The notes beneath the pieces are model-generated. The model did not search any database, was not told the origin of the DNA, and worked only from the letters and a program-made list of their open reading frames with translations. A DNA stretch of 64,000 nucleotides, from NCBI GenBank assembly GCA_963827685.1, contig CAWHBU010000005.1, forward strand, positions 96,001-160,000. Direction: 5' to 3'. Source of the stretch: an uncultured delta proteobacterium (GTDB lineage: Bacteria; Desulfobacterota; BSN033; UBA1163). Each line of letters opens with the position of its first letter. Position 1 is the stretch's first letter. Of this stretch, positions 3,962-12,471 are shown piece after piece. The position numbers and the translations under genes were made by a program.

Positions 3962-5215
3962 CTAAAGAAAGGTGTGACTGTACGCCTTTTCGACCGCCCT
4001 TCCGATCCGGTAACCGAGGAAGCCGCCCAGAGCCGAGCCCACAACGCCCTGGCTCGTCTGAATCGTCACAAACCAGGTGGCGTAAAACTTGTGCCATATG
4101 AAGGGTGCTGAGACGAGATAGAAGTAAAGGTAGACAACAAGCCCCCGCAAGGCCCCAGCGGCAGTTGCCCCCCAAGGGGTTCGAACGTAATCGCGGGTTA
4201 TCAGAAAAAAAGTCTCCAAGGACAACGATTCGATTATTATGTACGGCCACCAGAGGGGATTTACGCCCCTCGATATCATCTGGCCAAGGAGACTATTCCC
4301 GATGATGATCAAAGAGGCTGTTCCGGATTTCGGTATCAACCGAATACCGGTGAAAAGAACGCAGGTGAACGGGACCGAGAAAAAGAAAGCCTGGATGAAG
4401 GGAATTCTACTCAGGCCCATCTTAAAGGGCAGTGCCGCAAGATAGAGGAGGCTGATGAAGAAGGCGATCACGACAAGGTCGATGGTCGTGAACTTCTGGA
4501 ACAAGCTCTTGGAACGGGATACAGAGGTGGTTCGGGTTACAGAGAATCCACGCACCTCGGCGGCAAGGGCTAGGAGGCGGGCCTGCCGCAGGGAGTTTAT
4601 GACAAGGGGCTGGAGCAACAGCCGAAGGACCTTGAAGGCGTTGATTATTCCCCTTGTCCTAATCCCCCTCAAACGTAGCCCCAGGAGTATCCTCCTCATC
4701 TCTTCCAGAAGCTGAGGCATGAACCGCAGGCTGACGAGGAGGATCAGACCGAGTTCGCGGGGGATCCTTATCCTTTTGAGAGACAAAAGGATTTCAGAAG
4801 GGTGGGTCGATGCAACGATAGCGGTCGCTACAAGGGTCCCCGAGATAAGGCGCAATGACTGGACGAGACCGTAAGTGAGCCCCTCCTTGTAGAGCTGGAC
4901 GCCCCCCGTAATCCTGCCTATGCAGGGAAACTGCTTCGGCACAATCGTGATGAGGACCGTTCGGGGTTCGAAATAGTAGAAAAAGGCCTGAGAAATCATT
5001 GTTGAGATGACGATGGAGAGTATGACGAGAAAAAGAGCCCTGAACCGATGAACACGGACCCCGGCGAAGAGAAGCACCATCAGGGTTGAGACGACCAGGA
5101 CGAGGAGGTGGGCTGGTCGGTTGAGGATGACGATCAAGGCCGAGACGACAAGGCTGTAGCCGATCTTGGCGAGGGGATGGACCCGGCTGAGTAATGACCT
5201 ACCCACGCTTTTCAT
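3962..5215 (-). CDS. ECF transporter T component (EcfT/CbiQ) fused to a C-terminal membrane domain, probably an S component
   Basis: N-terminal HPLAK, LRFMPQL and the two Arg motifs LRLRG and EVRGF of EcfT, followed by about 170 extra hydrophobic residues with several TM segments. Confidence 0.75.
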   Translation of the reverse strand: MKSVGRSLLSRVHPLAKIGYSLVVSALIVILNRPAHLLVLVVSTLMVLLFAGVRVHRFRALFLVILSIVISTMISQAFFYYFEPRTVLITIVPKQFPCIGRITGGVQLYKEGLTYGLVQSLRLISGTLVATAIVASTHPSEILLSLKRIRIPRELGLILLVSLRFMPQLLEEMRRILLGLRLRGIRTRGIINAFKVLRLLLQPLVINSLRQARLLALAAEVRGFSVTRTTSVSRSKSLFQKFTTIDLVVIAFFISLLYLAALPFKMGLSRIPFIQAFFFSVPFTCVLFTGIRLIPKSGTASLIIIGNSLLGQMISRGVNPLWWPYIIIESLSLETFFLITRDYVRTPWGATAAGALRGLVVYLYFYLVSAPFIWHKFYATWFVTIQTSQGVVGSALGGFLGYRIGRAVEKAYSHTFL

Positions 5216-6617
5216 CAGCGGCTATCCTACCCTTCACTAAGGTGACAATTCTCTTCCCATAGCGCCTGACGGCTCTCATGTTGTTGGAGGAGAAGATGAT
5301 AGTTGTTCCGTGCTTGCTCAGGATTTCCGTAAGGTCCATGAGCTTTGCCCAGTTTCCCTCGTCGAGGCCGGTTGTTGGTTCATCTAACAGGAGGATCTCG
5401 GCCTCGGGCCTTAAAATTGAGAGAAAAGCCACTTTTTTCCGCTCGCCCCGGGAGAGGCAGTGGGGATGGACTGAGCGGTGATGGACAAGCCCCATGTAGC
5501 GTAACAGCGGCTCTATGAGCGTGTTTGGTGACCTCCGTTCCCCTCCGAGGAGCAACTCCGCTTCGACCGTATCGGCGAACATCTGCTCGTCGGGGTTTTG
5601 GAACAGGTAGCCGACCTTGCCTGCAAGGGAATCAAGATAAGGACTCTCGTGCCCCAGGAGGGATACTGAACCCCGTTGCGGCTTCACAAGCCCAAGGATT
5701 ACTCGAAACAGCGTGGTCTTGCCCGATCCATTGTCGCCCACGACCGCTACCATCTCCCCTCTCGTGACGGCGAGAGAAATATCGTGAAGGGCAAAACTCC
5801 GGTCTTTTACCTCGTACGTGACATCATCGAGCTTTAAGACTTGTTGACGTGGTCTGTCATGTCTCTCCAGAATCCCTCCCTCTCGTTCAGTAAGGGTGCG
5901 GGTGGGGGTGGTTTCCATCCAGTCCGCCGGCTCGGGCATCTCCCCATCCTGATCCTCTTGGTGTCCATGCCTTTCCAGGAGCAGGACCTTGTCAGGAGAA
6001 AAGGGAAGATCTTCACCATCATGGTCAGCAATAAGGATAGTATGGCCCTCCTGTTTCAGCTTCCCGATCACGTCGAAGAACTTTCTCCAACCTTTCTCGT
6101 CGAGGTCGGTTGTCGGCTCATCGAAGAGGAATACCTTCGGCCGCATCGCATAGGCGCCAGCGATGGCAAGCCTCTGCTTCTGCCCACCCGAGAGCCTGGA
6201 TGTCTCCCTGTCTTGCAGTTCCGTCAAGTCGAGTTCTCGAAGGGCCCCATCTACCCGCTCTTTTACATGCTGGGAGGGGAGGCCTAGATTTTCGCAGCCG
6301 AAGGCTACATCTTCCCCAACACGGAGCATGAAGATCTGGTTGTCGGGGTTCTGGAAGACCGTGCCGACAGTTCTGGACATCTCACCGACGGTAACATCCA
6401 TGGGTTTCACCCCATCCACTTCAACATCACCCGACAGCGTCCCTTCGATTACATGGGGGATGAGCCCATTGATGCAGAAAAGGAGCGTGGATTTCCCGGT
6501 GCCTGATTCTCCCTTTATAAGGGCTAACTCGCCCTTCCCCACATCGAGGTTCACATTGATGAGGACAGGCTCCGGCGAGCCCGGATACGAATAGGCGAGG
6601 TTGCGGATCTTTAGCAT
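5199..6617 (-). CDS. ECF transporter ATPase with two fused ABC domains (EcfA-A')
   Basis: Two Walker A motifs (GESGTGKST, GDNGSGKTT), VFQNPD twice, LSGGQKQR and LSRGERKK, DEPT twice. Confidence 0.9.
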   Translation of the reverse strand: MLKIRNLAYSYPGSPEPVLINVNLDVGKGELALIKGESGTGKSTLLFCINGLIPHVIEGTLSGDVEVDGVKPMDVTVGEMSRTVGTVFQNPDNQIFMLRVGEDVAFGCENLGLPSQHVKERVDGALRELDLTELQDRETSRLSGGQKQRLAIAGAYAMRPKVFLFDEPTTDLDEKGWRKFFDVIGKLKQEGHTILIADHDGEDLPFSPDKVLLLERHGHQEDQDGEMPEPADWMETTPTRTLTEREGGILERHDRPRQQVLKLDDVTYEVKDRSFALHDISLAVTRGEMVAVVGDNGSGKTTLFRVILGLVKPQRGSVSLLGHESPYLDSLAGKVGYLFQNPDEQMFADTVEAELLLGGERRSPNTLIEPLLRYMGLVHHRSVHPHCLSRGERKKVAFLSILRPEAEILLLDEPTTGLDEGNWAKLMDLTEILSKHGTTIIFSSNNMRAVRRYGKRIVTLVKGRIAADEKRG

Positions 6618-7324
6618 CGTCGTAGGTTATTGGTAAAGAGGTCAATAACCCCGTTGTAGTCCTCACCCGAGGAACGGGAGAAGGTGACATTCCGGAGGTA
6701 CTTGCCCGCAAGGGACGCCACCTGTTCGACTTCTTGATAAGATGGTTCCCTGATGTCGAGTCCGTCCACCTTCATGTAGCCGATGATCCGGTAGGGGATG
6801 TCCTGGTCGACAGAAGCCACGAACCTTGCAATCCCTTCGATCTCTTCGCTGTCGATCATGCTGGGGATGTAGACGGATGAGGCCGAGAGGCCGACACCAG
6901 CCGCGTGAATCTCTCTGAAGTGCTGCAAACACCGCTGGTTCGACTTGCCGGTATACTTCCTGTGGAGCCTGTCATCGAGGGCCTTGATCGACATGGCCAC
7001 GTGGGTGACACCATCAAGGTTAGGGAGTATATAGCCGTTGGTAATCAATCTCACCTCACAGCCGAAGGCGTCTCTCAAGGCTGCGGGCAGGCGGTTGAAG
7101 GCTGGGCTCGGCCTCGCCTCTCCACTGAGGATCGACACACTCCGAGGACGCACAGGCCCGAGGAGCGTGAGGACCTCGTCGAGATCAAGCCGCTTGACCC
7201 TTTTGAGGCTAATTTTTCCGTAAATCTGCTTCCAGTAGCAGCAGAGGCAGCGGAAATTGCAGCCGATGAAATAGAGGGAACAGGAACCGCTCTTCGCATT
7301 GTGGGTGATGCGGTGAATATTCAT
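6611..7324 (-). CDS. Radical SAM protein (PflA/organic-radical activating-enzyme-like)
   Basis: GCNFRCLCC (CX3CX2C), SGE and LITNG motifs; SD GGAGG upstream; overlaps the ECF ATPase start. Confidence 0.85.
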   Translation of the reverse strand: MNIHRITHNAKSGSCSLYFIGCNFRCLCCYWKQIYGKISLKRVKRLDLDEVLTLLGPVRPRSVSILSGEARPSPAFNRLPAALRDAFGCEVRLITNGYILPNLDGVTHVAMSIKALDDRLHRKYTGKSNQRCLQHFREIHAAGVGLSASSVYIPSMIDSEEIEGIARFVASVDQDIPYRIIGYMKVDGLDIREPSYQEVEQVASLAGKYLRNVTFSRSSGEDYNGVIDLFTNNLRRC

Positions 7325-7458
7325 GTTAGAACCTCCATCGGGCGGATATCATAGCAATGCGCGGCGGTGCAAAATAATTGAGATACTCCTCACACTTGCT
7401 GTTCCTGGCCTGGTGGCGTTACGGTTGCAACCACTTTGACTGTTTCGATGTTTGCTCC

Positions 7459-7507
7459 AAAAAAAACCACGAAGGGGAAGGTCTCCGGACCTTTCTGCCT
7501 TCGTGGC
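7459..7507 (-). promoter_or_regulatory. Leader RNA element copy A (terminator stem with two small hairpins) upstream of the radical SAM-ECF operon
   Basis: Minus strand reads GCCACGAAGG-CAGA-AAGGTC-CGGA-GACCTT-CC-CCTTCGTGG-T8. Confidence 0.75.
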
Positions 7508-7514
7508 TGATGTC

Positions 7515-7544
7515 AATATAACTTTTCTTTTTCGGATTTGTCAA
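7515..7544 (-). promoter_or_regulatory. sigma70-type promoter for the leftward operon
   Basis: TTGACA (7544-7539), 18-nt spacer, TATATT (7520-7515). The predicted start site falls just before element A. Confidence 0.6.
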
Positions 7545-7554
7545 AATTTTTTTC

Positions 7555-7583
7555 TTGACAAAGAAAAGTAAATTGTTTATAGA
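7555..7583 (+). promoter_or_regulatory. sigma70-type promoter for the rightward operon
   Basis: TTGACA (7555-7560), 17-nt spacer, TATAGA (7578-7583). Confidence 0.7.
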
Positions 7584-7599
7584 AACATCTGAATTGAAT

Positions 7600-7710
7600 G
7601 CCACGAAGGTTTGGGTCTGAAGACCTGCTCTCGTGGCTTTTTTATTTTGTCGAAATCAAAACCACGAAGGTTTGTGCCTCGCTGAAGCGACACATCTCGT
7701 GGTTTTTTTT
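7600..7710 (+). promoter_or_regulatory. Tandem leader RNA elements B (7600-7643) and C (7661-7710) upstream of the methyltransferase
   Basis: B: GCCACGAAGG-tttg-GGTC-TGAA-GACC-tgctc-TCGTGGC-T6. C: ACCACGAAGG-tttgtgcc-TCGC-TGAA-GCGA-cacatc-TCGTGG-T8. Confidence 0.75.
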
Positions 7711-7862
7711 ATGGGAAAAAAGGAAATGGTGTGCAGTTGGAGAGGGACAACTTACGATATTATTTTCCTTCTCTACGTCGGCGACAATGAAAAAACGACC
7801 AACGAGAAATGGTTTTTACATCTTCCAACGAGAAAAAAGATGGAAGGTTTAAGGAGACGCTT

Positions 7863-8579
7863 ATGGAACAGGCCGTATGTAAAAGAGTGGCAACCGTCAA
7901 ATTCTGGGATGCCTATGCGAAATGGTATAAGCTTTGGATGGAACACACTCACTATCATGAGAGAATTATCGAGGTGCTCATGGCTATGTCCAGACCGGGT
8001 TGGAAGGTCCTGGATATCGGAGCTGGAAACGGTATTCTCTCAATACCTCTCTGCGCCCGGAGGTGTGAAGTGACGACCCTCGAGCCTTCCATTGGAATGA
8101 GAAACCTGCTGTATGAGGAGGCATTCAAGAATAGGGTTGATGGGTTTAACGTCGATGAACGAATTTGGGAAGAGGTCCCCTGTTATGAGTTTTTAGATTA
8201 CGACCTCATCATGGCGTGCAATGCCCTTCACTTGACGCAGATCGGATTTGAAGAAGCCCTTGCAAAAATATTTCGGACAGGGCCGCGAAACGTCTTTCTG
8301 ATTTCAGAACTTGGACCGCCGGAAATCCAGGTGAAATGCCATTATGGCAATTACACGATGGCCCTTATGAAATCCTACGAAACGGATAGCTCTTACGCCT
8401 ACCATCATCTGAATGAAGTAGTGGAACACTGGATCTTTAAAAAGGGGCGATCCCTTCAACCTGACGAAATCCGTGATCTAAAAGAAAGGGTCGTTCTTCA
8501 GAACGGCCATCTCTGGATAAGGGATACGGCGCGAGTGATGATGTGCTGGTGGAAAAAAACATCTATGAATTTTAGCTAA
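7863..8579 (+). CDS. Class I SAM-dependent methyltransferase
   Basis: VLDIGAGNG motif I, LEPS and YDLI motifs; SD AGGAG before ATG 7863. Confidence 0.85.
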   Translation: MEQAVCKRVATVKFWDAYAKWYKLWMEHTHYHERIIEVLMAMSRPGWKVLDIGAGNGILSIPLCARRCEVTTLEPSIGMRNLLYEEAFKNRVDGFNVDERIWEEVPCYEFLDYDLIMACNALHLTQIGFEEALAKIFRTGPRNVFLISELGPPEIQVKCHYGNYTMALMKSYETDSSYAYHHLNEVVEHWIFKKGRSLQPDEIRDLKERVVLQNGHLWIRDTARVMMCWWKKTSMNFS

Positions 8580-8660
8580 GGAAGCAACTATTTTTTTTAG
8601 TCCGGATCAAAATCGTAGGAATTTGTTGAAAGGGGAATCGTTTTCGTTTTGAATAGCAGA

Positions 8661-8765
8661 GCCACGAAGGTGTGAGGTCAGAAGACCTTTTCTCGGTAGC
8701 TTTTTATTGGAACTAAACCACGGAGGTTTGATGTCCCACAGAAGCAAAACCCTTCGTGGTTTTTT
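8661..8765 (+). promoter_or_regulatory. Tandem leader RNA elements D (8661-8705) and E (8717-8765) upstream of the TonB receptor
   Basis: D: GCCACGAAGG-tgtg-AGGTC-AGAA-GACCT-...-CTCGGTAGC-T5. E: ACCACGGAGG-tttg...cAGAAg...CCTTCGTGG-T6. Confidence 0.7.
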
Positions 8766-8821
8766 AGTTTATTTCACCATAAGAAAGCGGGTGATAAAAG
8801 ACTTTGGGGAGGAGGTCTTCT

Positions 8822-11020
8822 ATGAAGGGAGTAACAAGCCAGCTAGTTGTAATCATTTTCAGTTTGATTCTCTGTATCTCTACGGGACTGGCGGAAGAGA
8901 TGCAAAAAGAAATAACGCTCGAAGAGATTGTGGTTACGGCGACCAGGACGGAAAAAGAGGCGGGGATGGCACCCGCTTCCACCAGCGTAGTGACAAAGAA
9001 AGAAATCGAAATGCGCAATACCCAGGCCGTTGACGAGGCGCTAGACGATCTCCCAGGAGTTTTTGATAGGCGGAACAAGGGCCTCATGGATACCCAACCC
9101 GGTGTGACGCTGAGGGGTATTCCGGGACAGCAAAGGACACTCATTTTATTGGACGGCATGGCCCTTAACAGTGCATACGACGGGACTGTTACCTTTACAG
9201 GTTTGGCACCAGAGGGCGTAGAGCGCATCGAGGTTGTCAGGGGTCCTTTTTCGAGCCTCTACGGAAGTTATGCGATGGGTGGGGTTGTGAATATTCTGAC
9301 CAAGATGCCGCAGAAAAGGGAGGTTACCCTGAAGGAAGGCTATGGATCAGACAATTATTGGAGTACCTATGGTTCTTACGGGGATAAACTCAAGGATTTA
9401 AGCTTCTTTGTGAGCGCGGGTTACAGATCGACAGCTGGCTACATAACGAATTTCGACGTCCAAAGCCTCAAGCCACCGGCAGGCATTGGCGGATGGTCGA
9501 CGACGAGCAACAACATGGGCAATCTCCGCTACCTGATCGGTGACTCGGGTAAGAATGGATGGTTTGACTACAACGTGACAGCGAAAATTGAATACGATCT
9601 TACGGAGACATCTAAGCTGAGATTTTCCTATTTGAGAATCGAAAGTGGTTATAAGTATGGTAATCCGGACACCTATCTGCTGAATGCTTCCCACAACCCG
9701 GTATTTAGTTATGGCACCGTAAACGAGTCGAGCTTCCTTTCGGGGAATGGGGGTAAGATACAGAACATCTTCAACCTTGGCTATGAAACCAAGTTCTCAG
9801 ATATCAAGGTAAAACTCCTTCTGAGCTGCAATCAGCTGGAGGATAACTGGTACATCACGCCCGGCTCAACTTCGGCGACTACGCAATTCGGAGGACCCGG
9901 CACCCTAGACTCGACTCCATCCATCAACTACAATGCCGACTTGCAGTTCACGGTGCCCCTTGTGCTGCCCATCGTAGGTAAACACGTCCTCACTTGGGGT
10001 GGCTCGTATCGATACGATTCGGCGAATACACAGGAGCATCAACTTTACAACTGGAAAGATGAAAACTCCCAGACCCGGCTCAGTTATCATGCGGGAGGAA
10101 AGGACATGGACTTTGCACTGTTTGCACAGGACGAGATACCGATCCTCAATAACCTTACAGCTTATATCGGTTTCAGAGAAGACTGGTGGAGGGTATTCGA
10201 CGGTTATGCAAATATTGTTGGATCTCCAGGTTACCCGCAGGATTACAGTTCGAGAACTGCCTCCTCTTTCAGTCCAAAAGGGGCACTGGTCTATAACCTT
10301 TTCGAGGGGACTGTCCTGCGGACTTCCGTGGGAAAAGCCTTCGTGGCCCCGACCCTTTATAATCTCTTCAGGACATGGAGCTATTATGGGGTCACCTACC
10401 ATGGAAATCCCAATCTAAAACCTGAAACAAGTTGGTCGTGGGATATCGGTGGAGAGCAGAGGCTGTGGAAGGGAGCCTTGGTCAAGGCCACCTATTTTGA
10501 AAACTATGTAGACGATCTCGTCTATAGGAAAACCGTTGACGCACAGAATCAGGTGTATATTAACGTAGGCAAGGCAGAAATCAAGGGGGTCGAACTTGCG
10601 GCTGAACAAAAGTTTGATTTCGGTTTACGGTTATTTGCCAACTATACTGATAATATTGCTGCAAAGGTCGTAAAAAACAGCATCAACCCAGGGTCCGAAG
10701 GCAAGCAGTTAACCCTTACGCCGAAGGAGATGTTTAACATCGGAGGGGAGTGGGCCATGGGCCCCTTCAGCGCTAGACTTGTCGGAAGATATGCGAGTAA
10801 GCGATACAATGACGATCTCAACCGAGATACGGTCAATCACGTCTACGGCTCGTATGATCCTTACTTCATCGCAGACGTGAAGCTGTCGTACAAGCTAACT
10901 ATGTTCGGGGTTTCAGGGATCGCTTCGTTTGCAGTCGACAATATATTTAATAGGAATTATTTTTCCTACTACAAGGCGCCTGGCAGACAATGGTTTGGTG
11001 ATCTGACTATAAAATATTAG
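8822..11020 (+). CDS. TonB-dependent outer-membrane receptor
   Basis: Signal peptide, TonB box LEEIVVTATR, plug motif VERIEVVRGPFSSLYG..AMGGVVNI, GNPNLKPE, C-terminal aromatic residue; SD GGAGGAGG. Confidence 0.95.
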   Translation: MKGVTSQLVVIIFSLILCISTGLAEEMQKEITLEEIVVTATRTEKEAGMAPASTSVVTKKEIEMRNTQAVDEALDDLPGVFDRRNKGLMDTQPGVTLRGIPGQQRTLILLDGMALNSAYDGTVTFTGLAPEGVERIEVVRGPFSSLYGSYAMGGVVNILTKMPQKREVTLKEGYGSDNYWSTYGSYGDKLKDLSFFVSAGYRSTAGYITNFDVQSLKPPAGIGGWSTTSNNMGNLRYLIGDSGKNGWFDYNVTAKIEYDLTETSKLRFSYLRIESGYKYGNPDTYLLNASHNPVFSYGTVNESSFLSGNGGKIQNIFNLGYETKFSDIKVKLLLSCNQLEDNWYITPGSTSATTQFGGPGTLDSTPSINYNADLQFTVPLVLPIVGKHVLTWGGSYRYDSANTQEHQLYNWKDENSQTRLSYHAGGKDMDFALFAQDEIPILNNLTAYIGFREDWWRVFDGYANIVGSPGYPQDYSSRTASSFSPKGALVYNLFEGTVLRTSVGKAFVAPTLYNLFRTWSYYGVTYHGNPNLKPETSWSWDIGGEQRLWKGALVKATYFENYVDDLVYRKTVDAQNQVYINVGKAEIKGVELAAEQKFDFGLRLFANYTDNIAAKVVKNSINPGSEGKQLTLTPKEMFNIGGEWAMGPFSARLVGRYASKRYNDDLNRDTVNHVYGSYDPYFIADVKLSYKLTMFGVSGIASFAVDNIFNRNYFSYYKAPGRQWFGDLTIKY

Positions 11021-11078: not shown

Positions 11079-11936
11079 TTAAGTTTCATTAAGGAGCTTT
11101 TCATACTGCTCTGGGCTCCTGTACCCTAATGCCGAATGACTCCTCTGACGATTATAAAACACTTCCACGTACTCAAAAATACTAAGCCTCGCCTCCAGCC
11201 TTGAACGGTACCGCTCACCATGGACCAACTCCGTCTTGAGCGTGCCAAAGAAAGACTCCACATAGGCATTATCATAACAATTGCCACTTCTGCTCATACT
11301 AGGAGTCATGCCGTATTCTCTTAAAAGCTCCTGATAGGCATAGCTTGCATACTGCCTGCCTCGATCAGAATGGTGGATCAACCCTTCAGAGGGGCTTTGC
11401 CTGCCCACCGCGTCCCTGAGCGCAGCAGAAGCTAGCTCCTGAGAGAGCTTATCGCTCATGGACAGCCCAATGATCTTTCTGCTTTTCACATTCATCACTG
11501 CTGCCACATAGAGCCATCCCTCAGAAGTGGGCACAAACGTAATATCAGATGCCCATACCCCCTCTGTCTGCCTCTGGTCAATCAGTAAGTTTGCAGCCAA
11601 GGCATAATGATGCCGTGAATCGGTAGTCCGCCTGAATCTCTTTTTCTTCACTTCTGCCCATATGGAGTGCTCTTTCATGATCCTGGCTACCCGGTTCTTC
11701 CCACATCTAAGACCCTGCTTATTGAGCTCCGCTGCGATCCGCGGACTCCCATAGAGCCTTCTGCTTTGAGTGTGGATCTCCCGTATGTGCCCCAGCAACT
11801 CCTCATCGTCTTTCTGACGTGTGCTCGGTTGACGCGTCTTCCACGCATAATAACCACTTCTGGATACCTTCAACACTTCACTCATACTCCTTATCTTGTA
11901 GGTCTCTCTGTGCTCTTCTATCAACCGATACTTCAT
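11079..11936 (-). CDS. IS3 OrfB (DDE integrase core)
   Basis: WASDIT, HHSDRGRQY, GNCYDNAYVESFF motifs. Confidence 0.95.
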   Translation of the reverse strand: MKYRLIEEHRETYKIRSMSEVLKVSRSGYYAWKTRQPSTRQKDDEELLGHIREIHTQSRRLYGSPRIAAELNKQGLRCGKNRVARIMKEHSIWAEVKKKRFRRTTDSRHHYALAANLLIDQRQTEGVWASDITFVPTSEGWLYVAAVMNVKSRKIIGLSMSDKLSQELASAALRDAVGRQSPSEGLIHHSDRGRQYASYAYQELLREYGMTPSMSRSGNCYDNAYVESFFGTLKTELVHGERYRSRLEARLSIFEYVEVFYNRQRSHSALGYRSPEQYEKLLNET

Positions 11937-12229
11937 CTGTTTCGTTTGGAGAATACGGCCAAGGCTTTTTTTAAAATGTCCCTCTCTTCCTTCACCTTTT
12001 CTAATTCCTTCCGGAGCCCCTTTATTTCCGCTTCCTCTGGCGTTACACGGCCCTTCCCTACGAAGGCTTTATCCCCTTTAGCTAAGAACCTCCTCCTCCA
12101 TAGATGAAGAAGATTGGGATGGATATCAAGCTCTCGGGCCACCTTGCCTACCGGCATCCCTTTCTCTGTGACCAACTGCACTGCATCTCGTTTGAACTCA
12201 CGGCTGAAATGACGATTCTTTTCCCCCAT
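11933..12229 (-). CDS. IS3 OrfA (HTH)
   Basis: FSREFKRDAV...VARELDI HTH, EERDILKKA. An A7G slippery run lies near its end and it overlaps orfB by ATGA. Confidence 0.9.
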   Translation of the reverse strand: MGEKNRHFSREFKRDAVQLVTEKGMPVGKVARELDIHPNLLHLWRRRFLAKGDKAFVGKGRVTPEEAEIKGLRKELEKVKEERDILKKALAVFSKRNR

Positions 12230-12471
12230 ACGCACCTCCTGTCCAATGATACAAATTCTCAGGTGTGTCCATCAACTCGGGGGAAGGTCACCCAGTAATC
12301 TTCATTTGCTAAAGCACCCGTTGACTGAATAGTAGGTAGGTGAAGTCTCCGTCCCCCCCTCTTCTCTAAACTGCTTCAGAAAGAGTGATTTCTATTCTCC
12401 AAGAATGTGAGATCCAAAAAGCACTCCACGGCTTTACAAATCAGGAAAATTGAAATACATAAATAAAATAG

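Follow-up and report, generated by a model that had tools for sequence, protein, structure and literature searches.

A widespread two-hairpin leader RNA with a proposed role in transcription attenuation of nickel-uptake genes

Copies of the leader element at the uptake locus

A stretch of 64,000 nucleotides from an uncultured delta proteobacterium (assembly GCA_963827685.1, contig CAWHBU010000005.1, positions 96,001 to 160,000; hereafter the window) was analyzed for a short RNA element that recurs in the leaders of a metal-uptake locus. The initial annotation had reported five copies, A to E, and all of them were recovered, each with its 5' arm, its 3' arm and a terminal run of 5-8 T (Table 1). 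Every 5' arm reads CCACGRAGG and is preceded by G or A. This motif occurs eight times in the window against 0.93 expected, and none of 100 shuffled sequences reached eight; five of the matches are the 5' arms and two come from the opposite strand of the 3' arms of A and E, whose complementarity is perfect, while the remaining one (10338-10346, minus strand) lies within the receptor gene and is unrelated. The copies represent a specific conserved leader element and not chance palindromes. They precede a coherent set of metal-uptake genes on the sense strand, as had been annotated, and the tandem of B and C is kept in relatives. The imperfect 3' arm described for D was also found, and D has the lowest score of the five.

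Promoters had been noted before both A and B. The first stood: the scan tool called it with 11 of 12 matches, copy A begins about 8 nt past it, and transcription is predicted to start at approximately the first base of A. The second, placed back to back with the first and followed by copy B about 17 nt past its second hexamer, was seen by eye and was rejected by the scan tool, the last base of that hexamer not being T. A further pair of hexamers (TTGAAA, 17 nt, TTGAAT; 8626-8660) was seen by eye just before copy D and is absent from the scan-tool calls; such a site would make D start a transcript, as A does.

Table 1. Leader copies, promoter-like sites and genes of the uptake locus (window positions; scores in bits).
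Feature	Position	Strand	Details
Copy A, leader of the radical-SAM/ECF operon	7459-7507	-	32.4 bits (model R1); CCACGRAGG 7506-7498; 5' hairpin 7507-7497, inner hairpin 7491-7480, 3' arm 7475-7467, U tract 7466-7459
Copy B	7600-7643	+	32.9 bits (model R1); CCACGRAGG 7601-7609; 5' hairpin 7600-7610, inner hairpin 7613-7626, 3' arm 7630-7637, U tract 7638-7643
Copy C, tandem, 16 nt past B	7659-7710	+	41 bits (model R1); CCACGRAGG 7662-7670; 5' hairpin AAACC/GGTTT 7659-7673, inner hairpin 7674-7693, 3' arm 7696-7704, U tract 7703-7710
Copy D, decayed	8661-8705	+	18.7 bits; 5' arm (CCACGRAGG 8662-8670) and inner hairpin (8675-8688) intact, 3' arm 8692-8700 imperfect, U tract 8701-8705
Copy E	8715-8765	+	49.2 bits (model R1); CCACGRAGG 8718-8726; 5' hairpin AAACC/GGTTT 8715-8729, C-AGAA-G 8739-8744, 3' arm 8751-8759, U tract 8760-8765
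Promoter-like site TTGACA, 18 nt, TATATT	7515-7544	-	Scan tool
Promoter-like hexamers TTGACA, 17 nt, TATAGA	7555-7583	+	By eye; hexamers 7555-7560 and 7578-7583
Operon behind copy A	3962-7324	-	Three genes
Radical S-adenosylmethionine (SAM) protein, small	6611-7324	-	Behind copy A
Fused double energy-coupling factor (ECF) ATPase	5199-6617	-	Behind copy A
ECF T component, CbiQ type	3962-5215	-	Behind copy A
SAM-dependent methyltransferase	7809-8579	+	First gene past B and C; likely true start ATG 7863 (relatives compared)
TonB-dependent outer-membrane receptor	8804-11020	+	Past D and E; likely start ATG 8823
IS3-family transposase (rve + HTH_21)	11079-12235	-	Directly after the receptor gene; second small frame alongside

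Two mutually exclusive folds

Each of the five copies folded into a long hairpin that runs into 5-8 U, with energies of -24.5, -21.5, -20.1, -15.6 and -18.3 kcal/mol and z-scores of -3.6, -4.7, -2.7, -1.2 and -3.5 for A, B, C, D and E, respectively. By sequence and fold, each copy has the stable G+C-containing hairpin and U tract of an intrinsic terminator. Two exclusive folds are available to each copy, since the 5' arm of the terminator can instead form a 5' hairpin (hp1), whereas the inner hairpin (hp2) is the tip of the terminator and is common to both folds. The pairing that excludes the terminator is conserved, and its outer pairs co-vary. The hairpins described initially were both upheld: hp1 as GCC/GGC in A and AAACC/GGTTT in C and E, with covariation over 128 distinct copies from several phyla, and hp2 as GGTC/GACC in A, B and D, TCGC/GCGA in C and a degenerate form in E, where only C-AGAA-G is left. 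The hp2 loops of these four copies other than E are CGGA, TGAA, AGAA and TGAA.

In whole-copy MAFFT alignments the inner hairpin was misplaced, and from them RNAalifold recovered the outer stem alone; hp1 was therefore examined on a gap-free alignment of 25 nt and hp2 by folding each sequence separately. Removal of reverse-strand readings of the same palindromes and of duplicate rows reduced 205 raw matches to 196 kept and 128 distinct copies. In these 128 copies the two C-G pairs flanking the hp1 loop are invariant and the loop is always the pentamer A-Y-G-R-A. Adjoining the fixed CC/GG, the first outer pair forms in 121 copies (GC 49, GU 38, AU 34), the following pair in 100 (AU 58, GC 30, UA 6, GU 5, CG 1) and the third outer pair in 86. 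The covariation score of 0.344 compares with 0.203 in shuffles, none of 500 of which reached it, and partners slid out of register gave at most 0.174. A separate count over 137 copies showed the same pairing picture. Among 137 copies, the loop cores are ACGAA (110), ACGGA (15), ATGAA (11) and ATGGA (1). Because the flanking positions were unconstrained by any search pattern and have no joint role in the terminator, hp1 is a selected structure.

This covariation bears on the possibility that the copies are constitutive terminators or palindromes of the repetitive extragenic palindromic (REP) type, acting as insulators or mRNA stabilizers with no switching. The strong hairpin and U tract of each copy and the clustering of several copies at one locus would fit such elements, and D and E could merely end the methyltransferase transcript. 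However, the hp1 flanks co-vary though they are no part of the terminator, and a constitutive terminator at A or B, immediately past the promoter-like sites, would silence the operon. Together with the genomic placement described below, these features make the constitutive explanation quite improbable.

Between the arms, the sequence folds more stably than shuffled versions in 125 of 131 copies (mean z -2.8). Folded one by one, the hp2 stems have mostly 5-7 pairs, with every pair type seen at each position, and among 133 copies the loop has four bases in 82, is an NGRA tetraloop in 60 (AGAA 35, TGAA 12, CGAA 7) and is closed by C-G in 84. The inner hairpin is a real structure whose stem is free in sequence and whose preferred loop is NGRA closed by C-G. 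Core and hp2 are joined by a linker of 0-9 nt, and the distance from arm to arm is 16-41 nt. When the nascent transcript was folded up to the 3' arm, hp1 and hp2 formed in A, B and E. A leader-peptide reading, suggested by GGAGG followed by ATG in copy E, was dropped, as the other copies have no start codon there.

The arms form a near-perfect inverted repeat close to promoters, so that they might also be read as a DNA operator for a nickel-responsive transcription factor, comparable with the spaced half-sites of NikR operators (PMC545781). The arm spacing of 16-41 nt differs from the fixed 13-16 nt of the NikR operator, and this variation, together with that of the linker, rules out a rigid DNA operator. 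In addition, NikR_C was not found in the genome, a U tract always follows but on a single strand, the covariation of the inner stem and hp1 flanks is of the RNA kind with G-U pairs included, and C, D and E lie far from any promoter. An operator function is accordingly very improbable.

Novelty and distribution of the leader

No match to Rfam 15 was found at gathering score in the 64 kb window, and a permissive scan of positions 7350-8900 returned only microRNA and small-RNA noise (E 0.06 or worse, far under gathering scores). The mini-ykkC, NiCo (RF02683) and cobalamin (RF00174) models had no match in the window. The element thus corresponds to no described Rfam family, in agreement with its initial description as unassigned. 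No description of the leader was found in the published literature by a search that left the motif lists in supplements of noncoding-RNA discovery studies outside its scope. The passages of PMC545781 and PMC11247825 that were consulted deal with NikR control and nickel genes and contain no RNA element.

An exact pattern was tested on 41 genomes with the reversed pattern as a control. It occurred in 16 of them, all within the family of the window (its own genome and 15 of 24 others), and in none of the 16 genomes outside; the reversed pattern gave no match in the family and one outside. A model, R1, was built from 14 copies and leans toward those of the NikM type. At E up to 1e-3 it had matches in 45 of 55 family genomes, a figure that is too high, as R1 gives 38 bits to an ordinary terminator as well. 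In a sample of 151 genomes of the phylum, R1 found it in 15 at E up to 1e-5, of which 12 are outside the family and all have the core and hp1. This strict figure is an under-estimate, since a looser threshold revealed clear copies in three of five further genomes bearing DUF3842.

With one genome per species, an exact pattern matched at least 119 stretches, 80 of them listed with titles. Those 80 belong mostly to Desulfobacterales and other Thermodesulfobacteriota, Nitrospirota/Thermodesulfovibrio and Bacillota, the last represented among the matches listed by Clostridia, Peptococcaceae and Desulforudis. Desulfoluna butyratoxydans is one cultured carrier among them. On the evidence of sequence, the copies are one widespread leader-RNA family that is absent from Rfam 15.

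Genes downstream of the leader

A same-strand reading frame of at least 60 codons starts within 350 nt downstream of 124 of 137 copies, giving 118 distinct first proteins, and Pfam was run on one representative of each of 20 clusters. The largest cluster was CbiM/NikM (23), followed by TonB-dependent receptors (12 and 3, i.e., the first gene in 15 of the 118 cases), outer-membrane channels of the Phenol_MetA_deg type (11 and 3), SAM methyltransferases (8 and 8), DUF4198/NikK (5), TonB (4), OprB porin (3) and NikB-like permease (3). Clusters of two each comprised a family-5 binding protein, an ECF S component, DUF3842, a PP-loop LarE-like protein and FmdE, and the rest were singletons or had no assignment. 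In all, 71 of the 118 fall in clusters represented by CbiM/NikM, TonB receptor, outer-membrane channel, DUF4198/NikK, TonB, OprB, NikB-like permease, family-5 binding protein or ECF S component. The methyltransferases that account for 16 of the 118 include some with a double domain (window 7809-8579; L189:4248-5156; L116:2226-3563). Around the 80 titled loci, tblastn with CbiM, DUF3842, CooT and receptor references gave a match in 27 among the matches listed.

The genome of the window (5.2 Mb in 14 contigs, 94.5% complete) carries one further canonical copy, F, which lies on another contig between a DUF3842-CooT gene pair upstream and NikM/CbiM followed by a PDGLE-domain gene downstream. No gene for an ATPase or T component was found near F in the 3 kb of its locus that were examined. 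The importer thus looks split: NikM/CbiM and PDGLE are at L002:1593-2538, and the ATPase and T components are at 3962-7324 of the window, on the minus strand. The module behind copy A probably completes the transporter whose NikM and PDGLE sit behind F. A seventh, divergent copy was observed before the DUF3842-CooT pair (L002:647-702), about 800 nt upstream of F; it shares the 5' core, has a short outer stem and a U tract, and again carries ACGAA in the loop of its inner hairpin. This copy is kept in six relatives at about 17-21 bits.

The whole genome therefore holds seven copies, six of them canonical and one divergent, and all lie at two nickel loci. This placement, with the 124 of 137 copies that precede same-strand frames and a gene set that is coherent across phyla, is unlike that of REP elements, which are numerous, occur in either orientation, sit typically at gene 3' ends and bear no relation to gene function. 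Two cobalamin riboswitches are present elsewhere in the genome (L215 and L216, on contigs 1 and 6; 93.8 and 65.3 bits), the second of which precedes a different TonB-dependent receptor, so that B12 uptake and presumed nickel uptake use different RNA leaders within one genome. The theme of the regulon is nickel rather than cobalt, because CooT, NikK, LarE-like and PDGLE genes are present and the cobalamin riboswitches sit elsewhere.

Candidate sensors

The genes for DUF3842, CooT and an ANTAR protein, each single in this genome, are all on another contig, in line with the earlier statement that the window encodes no candidate RNA-binding regulator. Within the family, NikR was found in one of 55 genomes, and that genome has no leader. 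In the phylum sample, NikR is present in 2 of the 15 leader genomes versus 70 of the 136 others. Leader and NikR are largely complementary in distribution.

The initial annotation had proposed an ANTAR variant, a target of ANTAR-domain antiterminators, as one option. The two hairpins beside a terminator and a GAF-ANTAR protein of 234 amino acids encoded in the genome (contig 2, 139325-139480; L214:1477-2181, minus strand) speak for this option. The loops, however, are a pentamer and a tetramer instead of hexamers, the terminator is overlapped by hp1 and not by the second hairpin, and the ANTAR domain is present in only 2 of 10 leader-bearing genomes outside the family, the other eight (95-100% complete) being without it. 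The phyletic test largely refutes ANTAR control, which is now highly improbable, and the RNA target of the GAF-ANTAR protein is probably not this leader.

DUF3842 occurs in 48 of the 55 family genomes, and all seven others are without a credible leader; in one of these (G008) the sole match is 44 nt long and scores 33.6 bits, the same length as the ordinary terminator scored at 38 bits. In the phylum sample DUF3842 is present in 58 of 151 genomes, including all 15 leader carriers, and it is also present in all five Bacillota carriers. The gene and the leader copy detected are often on different contigs; in the genome of the window, DUF3842 is encoded just upstream of F. When relatedness is ignored, the 151 genomes divide into 9 with both DUF3842 and NikR, 49 with DUF3842 only, 63 with NikR only and 30 with neither; NikR is thus found in 9 of 58 genomes with DUF3842 versus 63 of 93 without, and this anti-correlation holds family by family. 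CooT occurs in 90 of the 151 genomes and in all 15 with the leader but in only two of the five Bacillota carriers, which weakened its candidacy as a universal partner.

It is conceivable, though doubtful, that DUF3842 is the protein half of a nickel switch that replaces NikR, with the nickel-binding CooT where present. Nickel-free protein would then hold the two GRA loops and bring about read-through, as a metal-handling protein doubling as RNA-binding regulator in a PyrR-like manner or in that of the iron-regulatory protein and its iron-responsive element (IRP/IRE). Two complete genomes that carry DUF3842 without a detectable leader count against it as the binder, and its co-occurrence may mean only that it belongs to the core regulon.

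Proposed mechanism

With a probability of about 0.55, the leader family would gate nickel-uptake genes by transcription attenuation, being off by default and read through by means of a factor acting on hp1. The attenuator reading is well supported by sequence, structure and gene context, from which we infer both termination and regulated read-through. In this element, hp1 is built of the two C-G pairs that never change, a further two to four outer pairs that co-vary and the A-Y-G-R-A pentaloop; hp2 has a stem of 5-7 pairs of free sequence and, in roughly half the copies, a C-G-closed NGRA tetraloop. When the terminator forms, the hp1 bases pair with the complementary 3' arm ahead of the U tract, and hp2 is at the tip. 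Termination is the predicted default because hp1 alone (-1.6 to -4.6 kcal/mol) is too weak against the terminators (-15.6 to -24.5 kcal/mol). When nickel is scarce, a trans-acting factor would cover hp1 and RNA polymerase would read through; covering the hp1 loop would block termination, since this loop is presumably the natural nucleation site for the 3' arm. The factor would most likely be a protein that reads the two GRA-containing loops, since only the read-through fold exposes the conserved bases and the two similar loops suggest a dimer. With copies in series (B with C, D with E), the effect would be multiplied and the response sharper. Should the rightward arm be a single transcript, four attenuators, of which D is weakened, would precede the receptor and make the response very steep. 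The two halves of the split NikM/ECF nickel importer would be co-ordinated through copies A and F.

The element might instead be a compact riboswitch, in which an ion or small molecule is bound by the two small hairpins themselves and no protein takes part; the ligand could be a signal of nickel shortage that stabilizes hp1 and favors read-through, or nickel itself favoring the terminator. Conservation confined to the loops and closing pairs, with a linker variable over 0-9 nt, is consistent with this, as are the spread of the element over phyla along with its operons, the lack of a consistent RNA-binding candidate among the proteins examined and the ACGR start of the hp1 loop, which recalls guanidine-II. 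Yet the conserved bases are exposed only in hp1, that is, in the read-through state, and become ordinary Watson-Crick pairs in the terminator fold, so that a nickel ligand would turn import on, which is the wrong sign. There is also no conserved internal loop, junction or pseudoknot that could serve as a pocket, the hp1 and hp2 loops are not complementary, making kissing of the guanidine-II type unavailable, and the Rfam mini-ykkC and NiCo models have no match. A riboswitch is therefore regarded as unlikely, while still worth considering.

Default termination at A and B would release discrete hairpin RNAs. These transcripts of about 45-55 nt could act in trans as small RNAs, for instance as sponges of the factor, a role compatible with one in cis. 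Both copies have a predicted transcription start at or near their first base and a terminator at their end. No target complementarity was found, C, D and E are internal to longer leaders, and the conserved feature is the link to the downstream gene, which together render a trans-acting function improbable.

Several observations weigh against control of nickel uptake by a protein-read attenuator. Copy D is degenerate. The ordinary terminator to which R1 gives 38 bits lies behind a cold-shock gene of the same genome, the conservation of the terminator arms is partly built into the search patterns, and the shuffle statistics and co-occurrence counts overstate significance, the genomes being related. 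In 53 of the 80 titled loci no match to the four nickel reference proteins was found within 8 kb, and a few of the matches listed (Flavobacteriales, Devosia, Verrucomicrobia) are probably due to chance. Regarding the sensor, the proteins examined offered no consistent RNA-binding candidate. DUF3842 was modeled (predicted local distance difference test score, pLDDT, 77.7) with a plain Rossmann-like fold; it has no solved relative by sequence, and a fold search with it gave generic matches to ArsC-type phosphatases, the FtsZ N-domain, UbiX and dehydrogenases (template-modeling score 0.4-0.57). Its isoelectric point ranges from 5.1 to 8.8 and is not consistently basic, while CooT is acidic (4.6-5.3). 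From these models and values, neither DUF3842 nor CooT appears to resemble an RNA binder.

Relation to known regulatory systems

The leaders read by ANTAR proteins such as EutV, NasR and AmiR contain two hairpins with hexaloops that have A1 and G4, the second of which overlaps the 5' half of the terminator. The present leader likewise has two small hairpins beside an intrinsic terminator, and hairpins held by a factor would lead to read-through; it differs in its loops of five and four bases, in the overlap of the first hairpin with the terminator and in a regulon of nickel uptake. In the pyr (PyrR), HutP and LicT-type systems, a small protein reads a leader hairpin loop and thereby chooses between terminator and alternative fold, and attenuators occur in series. 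A conserved hairpin loop and several attenuators in series are found here as well, with no sequence relation to the binding sites of those proteins. PyrR stabilizes an anti-antiterminator, whereas here the hairpin itself would be the antiterminator. In hut the regulator gene is upstream of the terminator, as the DUF3842-CooT pair is upstream of copy F.

Guanidine-II (mini-ykkC) consists of two tiny hairpins with ACGR tetraloops before guanidine exporter or carboxylase genes. The two elements share conservation restricted to the loop and closing C-G pairs, a variable linker and a loop that starts with ACGR. The leader described here differs in having a pentaloop and an NGRA tetraloop, an hp2 without a self-complementary kissing pair, a terminator platform in place of the ribosome-binding site and nickel genes downstream, and it is not matched by the Rfam model.

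Nickel import is controlled by DNA-binding repressors such as NikR and Nur. To our knowledge, NiCo (the czcD motif) is the only nickel-related RNA switch; it folds into a four-way junction and activates exporters when metal is high. Both elements would control nickel and cobalt homeostasis at the RNA level, while the present one is a two-hairpin attenuator before importers that no Rfam model matches. The NikR regulon includes nikMNQO, nikKMLQO and TonB receptors (PMC545781). The leader precedes the same kinds of target genes, with the same presumed signal and sign (import off at plentiful nickel); NikR is a DNA-binding repressor, whereas the leader would be an RNA element acting on elongation.

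An RNA that gates importers, outer-membrane receptors and nickel chaperones would constitute a second, RNA-level route to nickel homeostasis, in sulfate reducers, Nitrospirota-type bacteria and Clostridia that mostly have no NikR. The regulon gives a nickel context to unstudied genes, namely DUF3842, the recurrent SAM methyltransferases and the radical-SAM/ECF module. At about 50 nt the element is compact and suited to reporter testing.

Further observations on the genes

The CbiQ-type T component has 417 amino acids, including a C-terminal extension of about 190 amino acids without a Pfam match. The IS3 transposase gene that follows the receptor gene may have severed the rest of the uptake operon. 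The GAF-ANTAR gene adjoins a glutamate-synthase-like gene and a LUD-domain gene. At another locus (L156), a leader copy is followed by a PFL-like glycyl-radical enzyme, a protein with a weak match to the radical-SAM protein of the window, and DUF3842.

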